A DNA stretch of 64,000 bases, from NCBI GenBank assembly GCA_938039295.1, contig CALHUY010000052.1, forward strand, positions 1,196 to 65,195. Direction: 5' to 3'. Under the pieces are notes generated by a model, which saw nothing but the letters and a program-made list of their open reading frames with translations, did no database searches and had not been told where the DNA came from. This DNA is from an uncultured Solobacterium sp. (lineage in GTDB: Bacteria > Bacillota_I > Bacilli_A > Erysipelotrichales > Erysipelotrichaceae). Position numbers and translations under genes: made by a program. Each line of letters starts with the position of its first letter. Within the stretch, counting starts at the first letter, position 1. Of this stretch, positions 37,350 through 57,904 are shown one piece after another.

Positions 37350-37670
37350 GTTATCAACAGCTTATTCACATCCCACAATCAGTGGTTATCCACAATTGTG
37401 GATAACTGTTGAAAACTTTAAATAATCCTTTATTTATCGCATTATTTTATAAACAATATTTTGTGTATAACCTATTTTTAAGAAAAGTTATCCACGATTT
37501 TTTTACTTATCAACATTGTTTATAACTTCTCCACATTTTTATCCACATCAAAATTTGTGGAAAACTGTGGAAAACCTTTATATTTCATACCTGTACTATA
37601 TTTTCTACATTGTTCAGTTGTGGATAAAAAAATTATCAACATTTTTACTATGGATTTATCCACAATTGAG
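37350..37670. other. oriC: oriC part 1: DnaA-box cluster upstream of dnaA
   Basis: Perfect TTATCCACA/TGTGGATAA at 37386-37394, 37397-37405, 37539-37547, 37619-37627, 37656-37664. One-mismatch boxes at 37363, 37488, 37557, 37567. AT-rich background. Confidence 0.9.
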
Positions 37671-37709: not shown

Positions 37710-39083
37710 ATGGAGTACAGGAATGAACAATATTTGAAGGAAGTCTGGGATAAACTTCTTCAATATTTGAGTGATAACCAATTAGTTGATATTGTTATAA
37801 TTAATAATTTTTTTAAACCTTGTTTTTTGTATGCAATCACAGATGAAAAAGTGATTATTGTTGCGCCATCTATTATTAATAAACAAATTTTACAGAGCCA
37901 AAATAAAGAAATCGAAGCTTCTTTTATTGATATTTTAAATGTTGATCATAATTTCATTGTAGAAGTACTCTTGAAGAATGAATTAACAATCAATAAGGTA
38001 GTAACAACACCTATTTCTAAAATTGATACAAGTGACTTTGTTTCTTTGCCAATTCAAAAAGATCGTAATTTTGATAATTTCGTTGTTGGTGACTGTAATC
38101 GAGAGAGTCACGCTGCGGCATTAGCTTGTGCAATGAGTCCTGGTAAGTTTTTTAACCCTTTATTTATCTATGGTAATTCTGGTTTAGGTAAAACACATTT
38201 ACTAATGTCGATTGCCAATTATGTATTAAAAGAAGATCCTACAAAGAAGGTTTATTATACAGAATCTCTAAAATTTGTTGAAACTGTTGTTAATGCAATC
38301 AGAAATAATAAAATTGATGAATTTAAACAATATATGTATTCAGTTGATTTATTACTTGTTGATGATATTCAATTCTTAGCTGGTAAAGAAAAATCACATG
38401 AAGTATTCTTCACAATTTATAACGAATTAGTAAATAATCGTAAGCAAATTTGTATTGCGTCTGATCGTTTACCAAAGGAAATTAAAGGTCTTGAAGATCG
38501 CTTAATTAGTCGCTTCTCCAGTGGTTTATCTGTAGGTATCGATTCACCTGAATTTGAAACATCTCTTGCAATTCTTCAAATGAAGATAAAATCTAGTAGT
38601 TATTCCATCGAAGATGTTGATAAAGATGGATTAAATTATATTGCGTCTAACTTTTCAGGAAATGTCAGAGATTTAGAAGGTGCTTGGAATCGTGTATTAT
38701 TCTATGCAATTCAATTCCAACCAGATGGAGGATGTATTCGTTTTGATACGATTATGAATGCATTAAAGAATCAATCAGTTGTTTCTGATAAGACTGGTTT
38801 ATCTCCAAAGAAAATTATCAAAGTTGTCGCAGATTATTATGGATTAACAAGACAACAAGTTACTTCTAAAACACGTACAAAGAATATTGCGAATGCACGT
38901 CATATTTCTATTTATTTATGTCGTAAATTACTTGATATTTCTTATATTAAAATCGGTGAAGAATTTGGTGGTAGAGATCATTCCACTATCATTAGTGCAT
39001 GTACAAAAGTTGAATCACAAATTGCTAAGGACAAAGCAATGTCTGCAGCAGTAAAAGAAATAGAAGATTACTTAAAAGCTTAA
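37710..39083 (+). CDS. dnaA: chromosomal replication initiator protein DnaA
   Basis: AAA+ Walker A GNSGLGKTHL, Walker B LLLVDDIQF, sensor motifs, C-terminal DNA-binding domain (ARHISIYLCRKL). Confidence 0.95.
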   Translation: MEYRNEQYLKEVWDKLLQYLSDNQLVDIVIINNFFKPCFLYAITDEKVIIVAPSIINKQILQSQNKEIEASFIDILNVDHNFIVEVLLKNELTINKVVTTPISKIDTSDFVSLPIQKDRNFDNFVVGDCNRESHAAALACAMSPGKFFNPLFIYGNSGLGKTHLLMSIANYVLKEDPTKKVYYTESLKFVETVVNAIRNNKIDEFKQYMYSVDLLLVDDIQFLAGKEKSHEVFFTIYNELVNNRKQICIASDRLPKEIKGLEDRLISRFSSGLSVGIDSPEFETSLAILQMKIKSSSYSIEDVDKDGLNYIASNFSGNVRDLEGAWNRVLFYAIQFQPDGGCIRFDTIMNALKNQSVVSDKTGLSPKKIIKVVADYYGLTRQQVTSKTRTKNIANARHISIYLCRKLLDISYIKIGEEFGGRDHSTIISACTKVESQIAKDKAMSAAVKEIEDYLKA

Positions 39084-39085
39084 GT

Positions 39086-39225
39086 TATTCACAATTTTAT
39101 CCACTGTAAAATAACAGGTTACAATGCTAAAATAGTATCGTCATTAAAGGCTTTCTAAGAGTTTTCCACATTATCCACATACTTAATAAGAATAAATACT
39201 TAAAATACTTTAAATACACGGGAGA
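39086..39225. other. oriC: oriC part 2: DnaA boxes + AT-rich unwinding region between dnaA and dnaN
   Basis: TTATTCACA 39086, TTATCCACT 39097, TTTTCCACA 39162, perfect TTATCCACA 39171-39179, followed by ~40 nt of >85% AT. Confidence 0.8.
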
Positions 39226-46933: not shown

Positions 46934-47044
46934 ACCTATTCTCCTTATTATTAAAACAACTATGTTGTTTAATCACTTTTAATATATCACTGTTTTGTAA
47001 CATTGACAAATTTCTATCAAGATGATTAAATAATTTTGTAAAAA

Positions 47045-47275
47045 CGTTGATAGAGAATAGTAGTACAAAAGCATTTACAGAAAGGTAACGGATGATGTGA
47101 GTTGCCATTGTGATGTATGAATCCGCTCTTGAGTGAAACTAATACTTTCCGGTTGTCCCGTTATTGCTAATGAAGTGGTTAAATTGTTTCACGTGAAACA
47201 ATTTAACAAAAAGGGTGGCACCGCGTTGACATCGTCCCTTTGTTGGATGATGCTTTTTTATTTTTAGAGGAGAGG
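47045..47275 (+). promoter_or_regulatory. T-box leader (tRNA-sensing riboswitch) controlling serS
   Basis: Conserved T-box sequence AAAAAGGGTGGCACCGCG at 47207-47224 (consensus AAUUAGGGUGGNACCGCG). A terminator helix (AACAAAAAGGG...CCCTTTGTT + T-run) follows. Candidate Ser specifier UCC in ...ACUUUCCGG... at ~47145. Candidate promoter TTGACA 47003-47008. Confidence 0.75.
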
Positions 47276-47281
47276 TAAATT

Positions 47282-48583
47282 ATGATAGATATTAATCTAA
47301 TTAGAGAAAATCCAGAACTTGTTAAAGAGAATATCAAGAAGAAGTTCCAAGATGAAAAGTTAGTACTTGTTGATGAAGTATTAAATATGGATGCTGAGTA
47401 TCGTGCTGCGAAAACACGTGGAGATACTCTGCGCGGAGAGAGAAATAAGATTTCTAAACAAATTGGTCTCTACATGAGAGATAAGAACATTGAAGCTGCA
47501 GAACAAGCCAAACAATCTGTAAAGGATATGGATGCAGAGCTAGAAAGCTTAGAAGTGAAGGAAGAGAAACTTGCTGAAGAAATCAAGAATAGAATGATGG
47601 TTATTCCTAATATCATTGATCCTTCAGTTCCAATTGGAAAAGATGATTCAGAAAATGTAGAAATCCAAAAATATGGCGAACCAGTCATTCCTTCATTTGA
47701 AATTCCATATCATACAGATATTTTAGAGAAACTTGCTGGTATTGATATTGATAGTGCTGGAAGAACATCTGGTAACGGCTTCTATTACTTACAAGGAGAT
47801 GTAGCTAGATTACATTCTTCAATTCTTGCGTATGCTAGAGATTTCATGATCAATAGAGGATTTACTTACTTCATTCCTCCATTCATGATTCATAGTAGCG
47901 TTGTAACAGGTGTTATGAGTTTTGCAGAAATGCAAAATATGATGTATAAGATTGAAGGTGAAGATTTATACCTAATTGGTACATCTGAACACTCAATGAT
48001 TGGTCGTTTCATGGGTCAAATCTTAAAAGAAGAAGATTTACCATACGCTTTAACATCATATAGCCCATGCTTCCGTAAGGAAGTTGGTGCACACGGAATC
48101 GAAGAAAGAGGTCTTTACCGTGTACATCAATTTGAAAAACAAGAAATGGTAGTTGTATGTAAGCCTGAAGACTCTATGGAATGGTATGAGAAGTTATGGC
48201 AGAATAGCGTAGACTTCTTCCGTTCGTTAGATATTCCTGTAAGAACTTTGGAATGCTGCTCCGGTGACTTAGCAGATCTTAAGGTTAAGAGTTGCGACGT
48301 TGAAGCTTGGTCTCCACGTCAGAAGAAGTACTTTGAAGTTGGAAGCTGCTCTAATTTAGGTGATGCTCAGGCTAGAAGACTTGGAATTCGAATTAAGGGT
48401 GAAAAGGGCAACTACTTTGCACATACATTAAATAATACAGTAGTAGCTCCACCACGTATGCTAATTGCATTTGTTGAAAATAACTTAAATGAAGATGGAT
48501 CACTCAATATTCCAGAACCACTCAGACCATATATGGGTGGACAGGACAAGATTGTTCCTCCAACAAAGAAGAAGAGTTTCTAA
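47282..48583 (+). CDS. serS: seryl-tRNA synthetase
   Basis: N-terminal coiled-coil arm plus class II aaRS motifs. 433 aa. Confidence 0.95.
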   Translation: MIDINLIRENPELVKENIKKKFQDEKLVLVDEVLNMDAEYRAAKTRGDTLRGERNKISKQIGLYMRDKNIEAAEQAKQSVKDMDAELESLEVKEEKLAEEIKNRMMVIPNIIDPSVPIGKDDSENVEIQKYGEPVIPSFEIPYHTDILEKLAGIDIDSAGRTSGNGFYYLQGDVARLHSSILAYARDFMINRGFTYFIPPFMIHSSVVTGVMSFAEMQNMMYKIEGEDLYLIGTSEHSMIGRFMGQILKEEDLPYALTSYSPCFRKEVGAHGIEERGLYRVHQFEKQEMVVVCKPEDSMEWYEKLWQNSVDFFRSLDIPVRTLECCSGDLADLKVKSCDVEAWSPRQKKYFEVGSCSNLGDAQARRLGIRIKGEKGNYFAHTLNNTVVAPPRMLIAFVENNLNEDGSLNIPEPLRPYMGGQDKIVPPTKKKSF

Positions 48584-48630: not shown

Positions 48631-48659
48631 TTGGAGAAGTAAGATAAATTTGCTATAAT
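48631..48659 (+). promoter_or_regulatory. promoter of SRP RNA (-35 TTGGAG 48631-48636; extended -10 TGcTATAAT 48651-48659; 17-nt spacer)
   Basis: Near-consensus sigma-A promoter immediately upstream of the SRP RNA. Confidence 0.6.
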
Positions 48660-48665
48660 CATACA

Positions 48666-48745
<80 letters not shown>

Positions 48746-48752
48746 TTATTTT

Positions 48753-49247
48753 ATGAAAACACACGAAGAATACATGGAACTAGCTCTAGAAGAAGCTAGA
48801 AAAGCAGAAGAAATCGATGAAGTTCCTGTGGGATGTGTCATTGTATGTGATGGAGAAGTAATTTCACGTGGGCACAATCTTAAAGAACAACTAAACCAGG
48901 CATATGCACACGCTGAAATGATAGCTATCCAGAAAGCAGCAGAAGTAAAAGGGAATTGGTGTCTAAATGACTGTGATTTATATGTAACTCTAGAACCATG
49001 TATGATGTGTACAGGGATTATCAATCTTTCTCGTATAAGATCAGTATATTATGGCACAACAGATCCAAAAGGCGGATGTTTAGAGACAGTAATCGATTTA
49101 AAGAAGATAAATAGACTTAATCATTATCCAAATATAGTCGGAAATATCCTCCAAAAAGAGTGTGCTGAAATACTAACAAATTACTTCCGTAAAAAAAGAG
49201 AAATCACAAAGGAGAAAAAACAGAAAAATAAAGCCAATATACAGTGA
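48753..49247 (+). CDS. tadA: tRNA-specific adenosine deaminase
   Basis: CMP/dCMP deaminase zinc motifs HAEMIAI...PCMMC. N-terminus MKTHEEYMELALEEARKAEE parallels B. subtilis TadA MTQDELYMKEAIKEAKKAEE. The ORF-track start 48720 overlaps the SRP RNA and is rejected. No clear RBS. Confidence 0.8.
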   Translation: MKTHEEYMELALEEARKAEEIDEVPVGCVIVCDGEVISRGHNLKEQLNQAYAHAEMIAIQKAAEVKGNWCLNDCDLYVTLEPCMMCTGIINLSRIRSVYYGTTDPKGGCLETVIDLKKINRLNHYPNIVGNILQKECAEILTNYFRKKREITKEKKQKNKANIQ

Positions 49248-53638: not shown

Positions 53639-54535
53639 ATGGGATCAATTGCATATGTAACAGATGAAAATATGCTTGCATATCATCGCTTATGTAGAAA
53701 TCAATCGATACTCTTTTGGCGATTATCCAATAAGAAGTTTACGGATTTCCGTAAAGGAGATTTGCTGTTCTTCTTTGCAAGACCAAATCATGGACGTAAG
53801 AAAGCATTGATTGGCTATGCACATTATGATTCTGAAATAAATCTTTCACTTAAACAGATGTGGAATCGATATGGCGATTCCACTGGATACGACACACAAG
53901 ATGGGCTCTACGCAGCGATAGAAAAAGCATCTCGTGGCAATATACCGCCAAAGATGAATTGCTTATATCTAACAAACGTTGTGTTCTTCTTATCACCTGT
54001 CTATCCAGAAGATGTAGGTATTTCTATACAAAACAATCTTGAAAGTTATTGTTATCTAGATAAAGATAGTCCAAAGATAACTGCTAAGATTTTACAACAA
54101 GCACAAAAACACGGTATCGACCTATGGAGTGCGAATCCAAATATCACTCCAGAAGAAATCTTTAAAGAAGATGCCGCAAAACATTATCTAGCAGTCATCT
54201 CACAAGAGATTGGTCAAGATAGTGGAAATGAAAGACAACAACGTACGCTTGAAAAATATGCAAAACAGAAAGCGAAAGAATCTGGTTGGGAATTAATTCG
54301 TGGTAGTAATACAGAATGTATTCGTATGAATGGAACTGAAATACAAATTGCAATTCCGTTTGTATCACAAGTGAAAGAACAACCTCAGAAGATTCGAGAA
54401 TATATAGGAAGGCTAACGATGTATCGCTTGTTGGCCAAGCATCAGGGTTTGGAAGGCAAAATCAGATTTGAAATACTTTCCCCAAATATACCTGACGTAT
54501 TAAAGGAAATGGTGGAAGAAATAAACAATGAGTGA
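53639..54535 (+). CDS. hypothetical protein (298 aa), possible N-terminal PUA/EVE-like fold
   Basis: Coding ORF with RBS AGGAGG. KGDLLFFFARPNHGRKKALIGYAHY resembles the GDLVFFYHS core strand of EVE/ASCH/PUA-like domains. Overlaps the mnmG start by 8 nt. Confidence 0.5.
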   Translation: MGSIAYVTDENMLAYHRLCRNQSILFWRLSNKKFTDFRKGDLLFFFARPNHGRKKALIGYAHYDSEINLSLKQMWNRYGDSTGYDTQDGLYAAIEKASRGNIPPKMNCLYLTNVVFFLSPVYPEDVGISIQNNLESYCYLDKDSPKITAKILQQAQKHGIDLWSANPNITPEEIFKEDAAKHYLAVISQEIGQDSGNERQQRTLEKYAKQKAKESGWELIRGSNTECIRMNGTEIQIAIPFVSQVKEQPQKIREYIGRLTMYRLLAKHQGLEGKIRFEILSPNIPDVLKEMVEEINNE

Positions 54536-56402
54536 TTTTGATATTATTGTCATTGGCGGTGGTCATGCGGGTATTGAAGCTGCGCTGGCTGCTGCGCGAC
54601 TAAAAAAGAAAACCTGTCTTTTGACATTGAAGATAGAAAATATTGGAAAGATGCCATGTAATCCATCCGTAGGTGGACCGGCAAAAGGAATTGTTGTAAG
54701 AGAAATTGACGCCTTAGGTGGTCAAATGGCGATTACTGCCGATAAGACAGCGCTGCAATTCAAGATGTTAAATAGCGCAAAAGGTCCAGGTGTACGTGCA
54801 CTTCGTGTACAGTCAGATAAACTTGCGTATAAGCGTATGATGCAAGATATCTGTTTACATCAAGAAAACCTAAGTGTAATTGAAGGCATGGCGAGCAAAC
54901 TTAACGTAACTGACAACAAAGTTACAGGTATTACGTTAAAAGATGGAACTGTGATGAATGCCAAGATTGTGATTGTAACAACAGGCACATATATGGCAGG
55001 TGTAAATATGATTTCATCAGAAGTTACACCAGGTGGTCCAGATCTTGAACCAACGACAGGGGACTTATCAGAGTCTTTACGAGAGTTAGGATTAAAAACC
55101 TTCAGATTAAAGACAGGAACACCACCAAGAATCCTGCGTTCATCCATCGACTTTAGTAAAGTTAAATTAGAACCGGGTACAGAAGGATTCTTACATTTCT
55201 CAGAATTAACGACAAAAGAAGATGTATTACCATATGATAAACAAGTATCTTGTCATATGACCTATACAACCCCAGAAACACATGAATATATCTTAGGAAA
55301 TCTCAATAAATCCAGTATGTATTCTGGTGTCGTTAAGGGAGTTGGACCTCGTTATTGTCCATCTATTGAAGATAAACTTGTACGCTTCCAAGATAAACCA
55401 AGACATCTATTATTCTTGGAGCCAGAGTCACTAGAGTTAGATACCATTTACCTACAAGGATTCTCCACATCACTTCCAAGAGATATCCAAGAAAAGATGG
55501 TGCATTCATTACCGGGTTTCGAAAATGCAGTAATTAAAAAATATGCATACGCAATTGAATACGATGCAATCGATCCAATTCAAATGAAGCCAAGTTTTGA
55601 ATCAAAGGTGATTGAAAATCTATTTACGGCAGGTCAAGTAAATGGTACTTCAGGTTATGAAGAAGCTGCTGGTCAAGGACTACTTGCGGGAATAAACGCA
55701 TGTATGAAACTTGATGGAAAAGAACCACTTATTCTGGCAAGAAATGAAGCGTATATTGGAGTCATGGTTGATGATTTAACAACTAAGGGCACATTAGAAC
55801 CATATCGCTTATTAACATCACGTGCAGAGTTTAGATTGTTGTTAAGACATGATAACGCTGATCAAAGATTAATTGAATATGGACGCCAAGTTGGACTTGT
55901 CAGTCAAGAAAGATATGATGCATACCTTGAAAAGATGGAGAATGTGAAGAAGTTAATACAACATCTATCTGAAACAACATTCGTACAAGATGAGGAAAAG
56001 ATACATGCATACCTTACTTCATTAGGATATGAAAGTGATGCACATATTGGTATTAATGGAATTGATTTAGTAAAACGTCCAAATGTCACAACAAAGGAAC
56101 TTCTCGCTACAATTGGGGAAGAAGTTGATGAAGAAATTGCTAACCAGTGCGATATCGAACTAAAATATGCAGGCTATATTGATAAAGCAAAACGAGAAGC
56201 CAATAAGCTAAAAGAGATGGATGGTATAAAATTGGGTGTCGATTTCAATTATGATGAGGTTGATAACCTATCTATTGAAGGTAGACAGAAGCTAATGAAG
56301 TATAAACCAGCCACGATGGGACAGGCATCCAGAATTTCAGGTGTTAACCCAGCCGATATCGCAGTACTTGCGATTGCCATTAAACAAGGAAAAGGAAGAT
56401 AA
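54528..56402 (+). CDS. mnmG: tRNA uridine 5-carboxymethylaminomethyl modification enzyme MnmG (GidA)
   Basis: FAD motif IVIGGGHAGIEAA. 624 aa. Confidence 0.97.
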   Translation: MSDFDIIVIGGGHAGIEAALAAARLKKKTCLLTLKIENIGKMPCNPSVGGPAKGIVVREIDALGGQMAITADKTALQFKMLNSAKGPGVRALRVQSDKLAYKRMMQDICLHQENLSVIEGMASKLNVTDNKVTGITLKDGTVMNAKIVIVTTGTYMAGVNMISSEVTPGGPDLEPTTGDLSESLRELGLKTFRLKTGTPPRILRSSIDFSKVKLEPGTEGFLHFSELTTKEDVLPYDKQVSCHMTYTTPETHEYILGNLNKSSMYSGVVKGVGPRYCPSIEDKLVRFQDKPRHLLFLEPESLELDTIYLQGFSTSLPRDIQEKMVHSLPGFENAVIKKYAYAIEYDAIDPIQMKPSFESKVIENLFTAGQVNGTSGYEEAAGQGLLAGINACMKLDGKEPLILARNEAYIGVMVDDLTTKGTLEPYRLLTSRAEFRLLLRHDNADQRLIEYGRQVGLVSQERYDAYLEKMENVKKLIQHLSETTFVQDEEKIHAYLTSLGYESDAHIGINGIDLVKRPNVTTKELLATIGEEVDEEIANQCDIELKYAGYIDKAKREANKLKEMDGIKLGVDFNYDEVDNLSIEGRQKLMKYKPATMGQASRISGVNPADIAVLAIAIKQGKGR

Positions 56403-56405
56403 GAA

Positions 56406-57041
56406 ATGAAATACACAGATGTAGTATCAAACGTGAATGTCTATGGAATGGATTCGGCAGTTATGGGTTCAAAATATCCTATGGCAGTTGATTTAACAAA
56501 AGTAGATGGAACAATTGTTCCACGTACACACGCACTAGCAAACGCAAAACCAGGAAGTGGACATGATAACTTCTTAAATGGAATCATCGTACAGTTCGAC
56601 CTCACATTTACAAATAAGGCATGGGTTGAAGCAGAACGCTATCATTTCCTAGATTTTATTAGTTCACAGTCTACAATGCACCGTATCACAAAGTTCAACT
56701 TAGATGAGGTGTATATCTCTTATACAGATCCACGAATTATCGAAATCATGAAAGAAAAGGTTAATTCCTATAATGAATTAACACAGAAGATTTCTGATAA
56801 AAAAATAGCTGGAGAAGATGTAACAGAATTAAATGAAGAAGCGAAAGTAAAATATCTTGAGATTCTCTACTCTAATCCAGCAGGTTTTAGAATTACTGCA
56901 CGTATGACAACAAACTACCGTCAGCTCAAGACAATTTATGCGCAGCGCAAGACACATCGCTTACCAGAATGGCGTGCATTCTGCGATTGGGTAGAGACAT
57001 TACCTAACGCATCATTTATTGTAAATAGCGACTTAAAATAA
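56406..57041 (+). CDS. divergent ThyX-like (flavin-dependent thymidylate synthase fold) protein, 211 aa
   Basis: By eye: N-terminal VxVxxMGxDxAV block; His53 within GHDNFLNGIIVQF (positional equivalent of ThyX HETPFEHIVFTF); C-terminal ITARMTTNYRQLK...AQ parallels ThyX NARSLMNFLNLR...AQ. Canonical RHRx7-8S is degenerate (R78-Y-H80...S86/87). Assignment is inference. Confidence 0.5.
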   Translation: MKYTDVVSNVNVYGMDSAVMGSKYPMAVDLTKVDGTIVPRTHALANAKPGSGHDNFLNGIIVQFDLTFTNKAWVEAERYHFLDFISSQSTMHRITKFNLDEVYISYTDPRIIEIMKEKVNSYNELTQKISDKKIAGEDVTELNEEAKVKYLEILYSNPAGFRITARMTTNYRQLKTIYAQRKTHRLPEWRAFCDWVETLPNASFIVNSDLK

Positions 57042-57160
57042 GGCGTATCTACAATTTGTGGAAAACTATTTTATCCACAAATAATACAAAACATCTATAA
57101 ATTGTGGAAAAACAAACTATCCACAATTGTGGAGAAAAAAGTTATCAACATATTTTCATC
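57042..57160. promoter_or_regulatory. second DnaA-box cluster (non-oriC) upstream of rsmG
   Basis: TGTGGAAAA 57057, perfect TTATCCACA 57071-57079, TGTGGAAAA 57103, cTATCCACA 57117, TGTGGAGAA 57129, TTATCAACA 57142. Six boxes in ~100 bp. Confidence 0.75.
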
Positions 57161-57205
57161 TTTCACAGGGGACGTGATGGTGATAGAATAGGTCACACAG
57201 AGATT

Positions 57206-57904
57206 ATGACAATACAAGAACTCATAGAAAAAGCAGCAGAGCTACAAATTTCATTGTCAGAAACACAGGTGAAACAGCTTGAACAATACGCCCAACTTTT
57301 GGTTGAGTGGAACGAGAAAATGAATCTCACAGCCATCACAGAACATGGTGAAATCTTAGAGAAACATTTCTATGATTCTATATTGCCATTAGGAAAAGGG
57401 AAGATCTTTGGAAAAGTAGCAGATGTTGGAACTGGAGCGGGGTTTCCAGGGTTGGTTTGGAAAATCGTCAAACCAGAATTAGATGTGTCACTGATTGAAC
57501 CAACTGGGAAACGGTGCACATTCTTACAAGAAGTAATGAATCAACTGCATTTAGAAAACATCCATGTTTATAACACACGTGCAGAAGAACAGGTTAAAAC
57601 AGACCGTGAATTGTACGATGTGGTAACTGCTAGAGCAGTCGCAAACTTACGAGTCTTATCCGAATTATGCATTCCACTAGTCAAAGTAAATGGACTATTT
57701 CTAGCGATGAAGGGTATGCAAGGTAATGCGGAAGCGGAAGAAGCAGCACATGCGACCAAGGTGCTTGGTGTAGAGCTAGAAGAAACACAGGATACATCTT
57801 TATATACAGGAGATATGCGAGTGAACTTATACTACCGCAAAGTAAGTCACACGCCACAACAATATCCACGCAATTACGGGCAAATAAAAAAGAAGCCTTT
57901 ATAA
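57206..57904 (+). CDS. rsmG: 16S rRNA (guanine527-N7)-methyltransferase RsmG (GidB)
   Basis: MTIQELIEKAAELQISLSE... and the SAM motif VADVGTGAGFPGL. Real start set at ATG 57206. The ORF-track start 57104 reads through the DnaA boxes. Confidence 0.9.
   Translation: MTIQELIEKAAELQISLSETQVKQLEQYAQLLVEWNEKMNLTAITEHGEILEKHFYDSILPLGKGKIFGKVADVGTGAGFPGLVWKIVKPELDVSLIEPTGKRCTFLQEVMNQLHLENIHVYNTRAEEQVKTDRELYDVVTARAVANLRVLSELCIPLVKVNGLFLAMKGMQGNAEAEEAAHATKVLGVELEETQDTSLYTGDMRVNLYYRKVSHTPQQYPRNYGQIKKKPL

Follow-up and report, generated by a model that had tools for sequence, protein, structure and literature searches.

A divergent relative of the flavin-dependent thymidylate synthase ThyX was found in a 64,000-nucleotide (nt) stretch of DNA from an uncultured Solobacterium sp. 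(GenBank assembly GCA_938039295.1, contig CALHUY010000052.1, positions 1,196 to 65,195 of the forward strand), which was analysed as a whole and is called the window here. The gene, an open reading frame (ORF) of 211 amino acids (aa) at 56406-57041 on the plus strand, is referred to by the working label gene X. Its product passed the tests for ThyX fold and genomic context and failed the sequence tests (Pfam threshold, RHR motif, S-x-R-Y motif), and X is therefore placed in a clade of the ThyX superfamily that is set apart by sequence, lacks annotation and has a remodelled active site. It is rather probable that X does the work of ThyX as a non-canonical flavin-dependent thymidylate synthase and makes deoxythymidine monophosphate (dTMP). 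A previous reading of the DNA letters and their translated ORFs (the sequence-only reading) had proposed either a ThyX-fold flavin/methylene-folate enzyme acting on RNA or a nucleotide, or a non-canonical ThyX. The non-canonical ThyX is favoured by the present analysis; action on RNA is disfavoured, as X occurs in phage modules for deoxynucleoside triphosphate (dNTP) synthesis lacking mnmG and alternates there with ThyX.

56406 to 57041, plus strand: gene X, a 211-aa ORF with an ATG start encoding a ThyX-fold protein, member of the large unannotated family phrog_6721.

Library searches with the protein of gene X gave no match to Pfam Thy1 (E<=1), NCBIfam or PADLOC, and the sole strong match was phrog_6721, a family of unknown function (E=1.4e-51). 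An AlphaFold2 (AF2) model computed from a 50-sequence alignment reached a pLDDT (predicted local distance difference test) of 96.4 and a pTM (predicted template modelling score) of 0.88. Comparison of the model to the PDB with Foldseek returned ThyX for all of the top 50 matches, each at a probability of 1.00. Among the viral structures of BFVD, the two best matches carried the name 'Uncharacterized protein' and four significant matches were unnamed; the other named significant matches were all ThyX or thymidylate synthase (TS). Neither a GIDA nor a flavin adenine dinucleotide (FAD) Rossmann domain was detected in X by Pfam or fold comparison.

The same relationship was traced by profiles. PF02511 was matched at E<=1 by 16 of the 50 family members individually (best E=5e-7); the window protein did not reach the Pfam gathering threshold of 24.8 bits, and the four family members with listed Thy1 scores lay at 18-22 bits. 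A ThyX profile (set A2) was built from nine authentic sequences, namely T. maritima ThyX, checked against 1kq4/1o26, and eight annotated phage ThyX proteins. The X family was aligned to it end to end by hhalign (E=1.4e-4 local, 1.9e-5 global, probability 40-54%). Taken together, X is supported as a very divergent homologue of ThyX, not a mere analogue. Relatives among PDB sequences, sought by phmmer and with a 50-sequence profile, included no ThyX; the best candidates, PsbA and NB4M of complex I, were rejected as chance matches. Isoelectric point and net charge were uninformative as a test for nucleic-acid binding, X (net charge about 0), ThyX, MnmG and RsmG all being mildly acidic. The ThyX fold that the sequence-only reading had recognised by eye is thus confirmed by AF2 model, Foldseek and hhalign: the Thy1-fold match was strong, and no canonical ThyX motif was revealed by alignment.

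Active-site residues were mapped by profile alignment and secondary structure, with ThyX numbered as in T. maritima and conservation counted in 86 family representatives. The following blocks were located.

56559 to 56600, plus strand: G52-H53-D-N-F-L-x-G-I-I-V-Q-F-D65 block, aligned by hhalign (G52 79/86, H53 75/86, D65 77/86).
56637 to 56645, plus strand: R78-Y79-H80 in place of ThyX R78-H79-R80 (R78 81/86, Y79 83/86).
56661 to 56681, plus strand: S86-S87-Q-S89-T-M91-H92 active-site loop (S89 85/86, M91 77/86, H92 78/86).
56877 to 56885, plus strand: P158-A-G160 turn, corresponding to the invariant ThyX L150-P151 (P158 84/86, G160 84/86; P158 paired with P151 by hhalign).
56907 to 56984, plus strand: helix block T168-T-N170-Y-x-Q-L-K175..Q180-R181-K-x-H184..L-P-E188-W189..C193, a high-confidence stretch of the hhalign alignment.

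The N-terminal V.V..MG.D.AV block noted in the sequence-only reading was aligned by hhalign with V11..M17-G18 of T. maritima ThyX, and G52-H53 was paired with ThyX G52-H53, which places His53 at the position of the flavin-contacting histidine, as had been proposed. The first signature block of the family is G52-H53-D-N-F..G59. The signature RHRx7-8S had been called degenerate and is so, reading R78-Y79-H80 ... S89; position 80 is variable in the family (H60/R8/N4/K3 of 86). S89 corresponds to ThyX S88, and M91-H92 stand in place of the ThyX dyad R90-Y91, which is kept in a single one of the 86 members (P0265). In the helix block the hhalign equivalents are N170 = N163, R181 = R174, H184 = H178 and E188 = E182, and P151, R174 and E182 are invariant in set A2. 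Conservation in this block (of 86) amounted to 80 for N170, 79 for Y171, 79 for L174, 82 for Q180, 80 for R181, 80 for H184, 62 for E188, 79 for W189 and 78 for C193; T169 and K175 also belong to the signature, and outside the block Y122 was conserved in 80. The parallel drawn earlier between the C-terminal blocks (TARMTTNYRQLK of X with NARSLMNFLNLR of ThyX) turned out to be 7 residues out of register. According to the profile alignment, T168-T169-N170-x-R172-x-L174 corresponds to ThyX T161-V162-N163-x-R165-x-L167 and Q180-R181..H184 to L173-R174..H178; K175 is not paired with R174.

For residues 78-93, where hhalign inserts a gap, the register was set by three other observations. In the AF2 model, strand 83-87 of X follows helix 70-76, as strand 81-85 of ThyX follows helix 3 in 1O26. 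The spacing from G52 differs by one residue between X and ThyX, and the distant member P0265 reads SQSSRYS in the columns where X has S-Q-S-T-M-H-R. On these grounds, the register R78=R78, Y79=H79, H80=R80, S89=S88, M91=R90, H92=Y91 was adopted. An alternative register offered by hhalign, with Y79-M91 as an insertion and H92-R93 paired with H79-R80, was rejected because of the match of AF2 strand 83-87 to ThyX 81-85, the S-S-R-Y of P0265 at columns 89-92 and the poor conservation of position 93. Deviations from RHR were also seen in bona fide Pfam Thy1 enzymes of phages, with T-H-I in one (L252:7980-8657) and K-H-Q, K-H-K and D-H-T in three members of set A2 (L010, L011, L012); of the motif positions, the ThyX set is invariant only at the central His (H79), S88, R90, Y91 and R174.

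The roles of these residues are documented for ThyX. R78 stabilises FADH- at N1/C2=O, the reduced flavin or the folate pterin is stacked upon by H53, and S88 is critical, with a hydrogen bond to the flavin C4=O (PMC11940539). The general acid is Y91, a strictly conserved residue that forms a hydrogen bond with H53 and owes its activation to R90; its mutation slows flavin oxidation about 1000-fold (PMC11940539). Uracil is activated by two essential arginines, which the source does not name (PMC7226160). As read from the alignment, X keeps the flavin/folate residues (H53, R78, S89) and one uracil-polarising arginine (R181 = R174). We take the two essential arginines to be R90 and R174; in the T. 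maritima structures R147 binds the phosphate of deoxyuridine monophosphate (dUMP). For R147, no conserved basic residue was found at positions 140-157 of X; hhalign gaps the helix, and ungapped back-alignment from P158 leads to L154. Semi-conserved basic residues occur elsewhere in X (K175, K182, R185, R93).

The family was found to be large. Exhaustive search of 1.84 billion representatives yielded 2,077 clusters (50% identity) at E<=1e-3, 164 of them at E<=1e-30, and a word-indexed search gave at least 8,000 matches, all unnamed or 'hypothetical protein' and all lacking a precomputed Pfam domain. Across over 2,000 clusters, about 25 positions reach a conservation of 90% or more, the ThyX flavin, folate and uracil residues among them, and this pattern reads as that of an active enzyme, not a decaying one. 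The family is unnamed in Pfam, NCBIfam, PHROGs and PADLOC and among the NCBI/UniProt names seen. In the literature, no third class of TS, no ThyX-fold hypermodification enzyme and no account of this family was found, just ThyX and PolB.

Domain fusions of X involve homing endonucleases and helix-turn-helix (HTH) modules alone; no pathway partners were found among them. Many phage copies are fused to, interrupted by or flanked by homing endonucleases of the HNH_3 type, with or without AP2, NUMOD4 or HTH, or of the GIY-YIG type (P0136, P0191, P0197, P0221; L284:7419-8636; L187:5756-6724). HNH/homing endonucleases also adjoin true phage ThyX genes, as in Gordonia phage Kampe, Yersinia phage PYps3T and Campylobacter phage F365, and such targeting is typical of essential phage nucleotide genes. 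The member with the canonical S-S-R-Y loop, P0265 (L096-L098), lies between NrdD and a nucleoside 2-deoxyribosyltransferase and is followed by a Bmp/ABC nucleoside-uptake system; phage tail genes adjoin. In evolution, P0265 may stand midway between ThyX and X.

Outside the Erysipelotrichaceae, all sampled contexts of X were phage-like; the sample comprised 18 GenBank phages, at least 591 IMG/VR contigs and six further metagenomic contexts. Isolated phages carry X in the replication/recombination module. Metagenomic gene orders were NrdD, NrdG, dUTPase, X, DNA polymerase A; NrdD, X, nucleoside 2-deoxyribosyltransferase, Bmp/ABC nucleoside transporter; and NrdG followed by X. In 80 viral loci the commonest neighbour families, all on the same strand as X, were Pol III alpha (20), NrdD (19), a guanylate-kinase-like kinase (16), dUTPase (12), a deoxynucleoside monophosphate (dNMP) kinase (10), NrdG (9+8), NT5C deoxynucleotidase (9) and DnaB (9). 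At least one gene of dNTP metabolism was present within 5 kb of X in 34 of 75 loci. In 84 loci from outside the Erysipelotrichaceae, the sequence up to 5 kb from X contained neither Fhs nor FolD.

In related viral elements X and ThyX alternate at the same site. The NrdD that neighbours X was used to anchor 100 related viral loci (60-100% identical), dereplicated to 84 groups. Within 10 kb on either side of NrdD, 17 loci (15 groups) had X only, 20 (17) had ThyX only and one (1) had ThyA only; none (0) combined X with a TS, and 62 (51) had neither. Exclusivity of X and TS was tested by a one-sided Fisher test that ignores kinship (p=0.012 for loci, 0.018 for groups). Both genes lie about 2 kb upstream of NrdD, with the same family of dNMP kinase (DNMK) no more than 500 nt away in 8/8 cases for X and 15/15 for ThyX, and the consensus order is [ThyX or X], DNMK, g4, g3, NrdD, NrdG, g6, dUTPase. 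Between X-type and ThyX-type loci the flanking genes are orthologous, their proteins being 61-86% (NrdD), 54-66% (DNMK), 30-55% (g4), 39-53% (g3) and 44-49% (NrdG) identical; no BLAST-detectable similarity exists between the X and ThyX proteins of the alternating loci. The ThyX genes of the slot are bona fide Pfam Thy1 members with 99-162 bits, and X in the same slot scores at most 18 bits. A second pair was found in which X directly precedes a guanylate-kinase-like gene (L196) and ThyX lies one small ORF before the same kinase family (L218). A scan anchored on the DNA polymerase A of L099 gave four distant loci, none with X or ThyX.

The complete genomes of two phages, Fnu1 of Fusobacterium and phiCD211 of C. 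difficile, both carry genes for NrdD, NrdG, dUTPase, guanylate kinase and X, and neither has an annotated TS. Searches of the complete genomes of Fnu1, phiCD211 and XP41-N3 for ThyA/ThyX by tblastn, with nine ThyX sequences and E. coli ThyA as queries, gave nothing better than E=0.046, and the window together with the earlier loci (2.04 Mb in total) gave nothing at E<=0.01; 5-8 of 8 ThyX loci were recovered in the positive control. Fnu1 also encodes a homologue of FolD, the methylene-tetrahydrofolate (methylene-THF) dehydrogenase/cyclohydrolase (L183:9906-10742, record 109906-110742), which is a phage-encoded supply of the one-carbon donor methylene-THF. The context of the TS class, i.e. dNTP genes combined with mutual exclusivity with ThyA/ThyX, was thus observed in the viral loci and in three complete phage genomes. 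The X family is essentially a phage family of dNTP-synthesis modules that replaces ThyX in its slot.

The bacterial members form a separate branch. A pattern scan of 185,579 species genomes found 334 relatives, the best 80 of which all belonged to the Erysipelotrichaceae (genera Solobacterium, Bulleidia, Lactimicrobium, Anaerorhabdus and Holdemania). X was 97-99% identical to proteins of Solobacterium metagenome-assembled genomes, and the product of the 298-aa ORF upstream of mnmG (ORF298) was 96% identical to a protein of S. moorei; the window thus comes from Solobacterium moorei or a near relative of it. Mean identities to the window protein across loci were 73.1% for X, 72.7% for MnmG, 74.5% for Fhs, 67.9% for RecR, 64.6% for Noc, 59.5% for RsmG and 51.2% for ORF298, X being as well conserved as MnmG and Fhs and better than RecR, Noc and RsmG, and the identity of X tracked that of MnmG (r=0.90). 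The GC content of X, overall and at third codon positions (GC3), is native to the host. When 245 family members were placed in a neighbour-joining (NJ) tree, the 81 from Erysipelotrichaceae formed one clade with no phage sequence in it. From the MnmG-like identity and its correlation, the native GC and the single clade it follows that X was acquired once and then inherited vertically under core-gene constraint. It has been retained even in the 1.38-Mb genome of Bulleidia extructa (L084), a species that is reported to depend on salvage because it cannot make purines or pyrimidines de novo; the genome paper makes no mention of thymidylate synthase (PMC12786226).

The gene order in the window is recR, fhs, the 298-aa ORF, mnmG, X, rsmG, noc/parB, parA, parB, with fhs identified by Pfam FTHFS (E=3e-259) and rsmG by Pfam GidB (E=5e-53). 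Features around X are as follows.

53639 to 54535, plus strand: ORF298 (298 aa), overlapping the mnmG start by 8 nt, in the usual place of mnmE.
54528 to 56402, plus strand: mnmG (Pfam GIDA, E=2e-153, GIDA_C_1st and SAM_GIDA_C), upstream operon partner of X.
56388 to 56399, plus strand: Shine-Dalgarno-like purine-rich stretch GGAAAAGGAAGA, read from the sequence, overlapping the end of mnmG and lying 7-18 nt before the X start codon.
57057 to 57150, no strand assigned: DnaA-box-like cluster of six 9-mers (TTATCCACA, <=1 mismatch) in 94 nt, the downstream bound of the mnmG-X unit.
57162 to 57189, plus strand: promoter-like site TTCACA-16-TAGAAT with TG, a 10/12 match and the best of the region, by consensus match only.

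As described in the sequence-only reading, the 211-aa ORF directly follows mnmG. The mnmG stop and the ATG of X are separated by 3 nt, and the overlap of GGAAAAGGAAGA with the end of mnmG makes translational coupling of X to mnmG possible. The view of X as an insertion into a conserved mnmG-rsmG junction was wrong: the conserved unit here is mnmG-X, with a gap of at most 24 nt in 68 of 71 loci with both genes complete, and rsmG drifts, often lying 1-5 kb off or outside the locus; the presence of fhs varies. Whereas mnmG-X is fixed, insertions vary at the junction of X and rsmG, which in many relatives are separated by a glycoside-hydrolase-like gene of the GHL10 family or by other cargo of 1-5 kb (L004-L007, L025, L027 and others). 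Co-occurrence with mnmG holds in the Erysipelotrichaceae and was not seen in the contexts sampled elsewhere, which are phage-like and without mnmG. Nor is fhs two genes upstream of X but three, since the orphan ORF298 separates it from mnmG, and not all neighbours are folate- or flavin-dependent, rsmG being dependent on S-adenosylmethionine (SAM) and provided with a putative promoter of its own and the orphan ORF having been overlooked. The argument from fhs, mnmG and rsmG, partly wrong, does not carry a functional inference.

ORF298 gave no match in Pfam, NCBIfam, PADLOC or PDB. Its approximately 240 homologues are all from Erysipelotrichaceae, and 57 of 80 loci have it upstream of mnmG. It was considered as a disguised MnmE or pathway partner, but with no family match it stands as a lineage-restricted orphan. 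No mnmE adjoins mnmG within the loci of this lineage (L016-L095; loci only).

Downstream of X, the mechanically predicted rsmG ORF (57104-57904) begins at a GTG (57104) inside the DnaA-box cluster. From the promoter-like site at 57162-57189 and the conserved N-terminus MTIQELIEK..., the true start is most likely the ATG at 57206, and with the DnaA-box-like and promoter-like sites in the X-rsmG spacer rsmG is probably a separate unit starting there. No intrinsic terminator was predicted after X, and no folate, ZTP or THF riboswitch linking the operon from fhs to X to one-carbon metabolism was found in the window. DnaA-box-like sites (TTATCCACA, <=1 mismatch) number 58 in the whole window, with 23.3 +/- 4.5 expected. 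Further clusters at 37351-37664 and 39085-39179 flank a 457-aa ORF (37710-39083) that is probably dnaA; these clusters mark a bipartite replication origin (oriC) about 18 kb upstream of X. The origin-distal cluster beside the mnmG operon is reminiscent of those in Bacillus subtilis. Two RNA elements were found elsewhere in the window. A T-box leader (47038-47242, plus strand, 118 bits) precedes a 433-aa ORF (47282-48583), presumably an aminoacyl-tRNA synthetase, and a small bacterial signal recognition particle RNA (48658-48755, plus strand, 57 bits) is found just upstream of ORF 48720-49247 and dnaX.

As a thymidylate synthase, X would carry FAD, NAD(P)H would reduce this flavin, and 5,10-methylene-THF would donate one carbon for methylation of dUMP at C5 to dTMP. 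H92 would assume the general-acid role of the R90-activated Y91, a histidine being a group that could act as general acid without a tuning arginine. K175, K182, R185 and R93 would bind the nucleotide phosphate. One phage copy would have been captured once by the ancestor of the Solobacterium/Bulleidia/Lactimicrobium/Anaerorhabdus/Holdemania group, attached at the 3' end of mnmG, close to oriC, and maintained from then on by the constraint that acts on core genes. The link between mnmG and X would most likely reflect co-expression in a growth- or replication-linked operon near the origin, not shared chemistry.

Several points weigh against dTMP synthesis by X. The protein has no TS match at all in Pfam or NCBIfam, and the hhalign probability is just 40-54%. 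Residues critical in ThyX are changed (Y91 to His, R90 to Met, H79 to Tyr, and no conserved counterpart of R147), so that substrate, product or kinetics may differ. The residue map comes from profile alignment and secondary structure, and hhalign offers another register for residues 79-93. The exclusivity statistic ignores phylogeny, and 62 of the 100 loci have neither gene within 10 kb. The tight coupling to mnmG has no better explanation than co-expression. Finally, a T-replacement enzyme, for example one making 5-hydroxymethyl-dUMP, would also fill a TS slot and exclude ThyX, and some X loci contain NT5C.

The conserved R-Y-x / S-S-x-S-x-M-H site could mean, though this is unlikely, that X is no dTMP synthase but a new flavin/folate pyrimidine-C5 enzyme (for example a flavin-dependent hydroxymethylase or a methylase of another nucleotide) or even a one-carbon/flavin partner feeding MnmG in the Erysipelotrichaceae; were it so, it would be the first ThyX-fold enzyme with new chemistry, in thousands of gut and oral phages and a bacterial family. 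Taken alone, a C5-hydroxymethylase of dUMP (or dCMP or UMP), or another C5 one-carbon transferase, delivering a modified pyrimidine into phage DNA and some other C5-modified nucleotide in the Erysipelotrichaceae, is a minority option that we consider unlikely. The loop is remodelled and strictly conserved at the very place through which ThyX governs departure of the carbinolamine hydroxyl and the reduction step (R90-Y91 to M91-H92, H79 to Y79), the phosphate-binding R147 has no conserved counterpart, and such an enzyme would likewise be mutually exclusive with ThyX. X often lies beside dNMP kinases and sometimes beside an NT5C deoxypyrimidine nucleotidase, a type used by some T-replacing phages; the same kinase family, however, accompanies bona fide ThyX in the sister elements (15/15) and is not specific to X, and no hypermodification genes (DNA base kinases, aGPT-Pplases, glycosyltransferases) were present among the 21 commonest annotated neighbour clusters, which are numbered 1-10, 12-16 and 18-22. 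Retention of R181, the equivalent of the uracil-carbonyl polariser R174, would favour uracil over cytosine as substrate. The chromosomal copy, with identical signature and core and vertical in a whole family, fits a canonical building block better, and Fnu1 and phiCD211 would be left without a dTMP route of their own, which is possible but unnecessary.

That X works with MnmG on RNA, as a flavin/methylene-folate modifier of uridine C5 in tRNA or rRNA or as a stand-in for MnmE delivering the folate or methylene group, is very improbable. Such a role would account for the coupling of mnmG and X that is almost universal in this lineage (a gap of <=24 nt in 68/71 loci; r=0.90). An orphan ORF occupies the place upstream of mnmG where mnmE is usual, and MnmEG and ThyX share flavin-iminium/methylene-transfer chemistry at uracil C5 (PMC8989533). 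All sampled contexts outside the Erysipelotrichaceae, however, are phage-like dNTP/replication modules with no mnmG nearby; X alternates in situ with ThyX, which acts on a mononucleotide, and bacterial and phage members share the same invariant residues and so probably one function. The fold is that of ThyX, not the GidA/TrmFO fold of the known flavin-dependent RNA methylases, and no RNA-binding domain has been added. Scarcely more credit is given to a protein without TS chemistry, be it a nucleotide- or flavin-binding regulator, an NAD(P)H oxidase, a flavin reductase or a phage counter-defence factor acting on nucleotide pools. Several canonical catalytic residues are lost, no library assigns a function, and anti-defence factors are common among the accessory genes of phage replication modules; yet the conservation of about 25 positions at 90% or more, ThyX cofactor residues included, is the pattern of an active enzyme with the same cofactors, the bacterial family, with its reduced genomes, keeps the gene under purifying selection at core-gene level, PADLOC gave no match, and X takes the slot of ThyX instead of being added beside it.

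Thymidylate synthesis is treated as a matter of two families, ThyA and ThyX, and annotation, metabolic reconstruction and auxotrophy calls rest on recognising either. If X makes dTMP, many gut and oral phages as well as a family of bacteria living with humans and animals (Solobacterium, Bulleidia, Holdemania and others) possess a TS that is missed by current pipelines, and the 'strictly conserved' R90-Y91 dyad and the RHR motif are dispensable, which would be a natural experiment on a debated mechanism. If X does not make dTMP, a known scaffold carries an enzymology that is new. Because humans have no ThyX, antibacterial research pursues this enzyme as a target, and a variant active site bears on the inhibitor spectrum.

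Among known systems, the ThyA family (TS and the phage dUMP/dCMP hydroxymethylases) shares with X the metabolic step and the phage neighbourhoods, and its scaffold is one in which a TS can be converted to a hydroxymethylase; it differs by having no sequence or fold similarity to X, no flavin, and THF as reductant. MnmEG, TrmFO and RlmFO transfer the methylene of methylene-THF via flavin to uracil C5, and MnmG is the upstream neighbour of X, apparently co-translated with it in the Erysipelotrichaceae. They act on RNA with an unrelated GidA-like Rossmann fold, TrmFO and RlmFO use a Cys nucleophile, X is without such a domain, and its adjacency to mnmG is confined to the Erysipelotrichaceae. PolB, the UMP/dUMP C5-methylase of polyoxin biosynthesis in Streptomyces cacaoi (4P5A), is a ThyX-fold paralogue with ThyX-type flavin/folate chemistry (PMC7226160, PMC5954106) and demonstrates that the fold can shift its substrate preference. 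PolB is, however, a recognisable COG1351/Thy1 protein with the two arginines, encoded in a nucleoside-antibiotic cluster; X is far more divergent, lacks R90 and is found in phage dNTP modules or by mnmG, so it does not qualify as a PolB-type enzyme. From ThyX/Thy1 itself (PF02511, COG1351; TM0449 1O26, H. pylori 3AH5, M. tuberculosis 2AF6), X differs in being only 13-17% identical, below the Pfam gathering score and without NCBIfam match, in having R-Y-(H/variable) for RHR, S-x-M-H for S-x-R-Y and no conserved counterpart of R147, and in invariant residues of its own (Y79, S86-S87, Y122, G160, Y171, Q180, W189, C193). It nevertheless matches the ThyX secondary structure element by element, has equivalents of H53, R78, S88, P151, N163, R174, H178 and E182, occupies the same phage niche with dUTPase, dNMP kinase and NrdD/NrdG, is likewise a target of homing endonucleases, and is interchangeable with ThyX in its slot.

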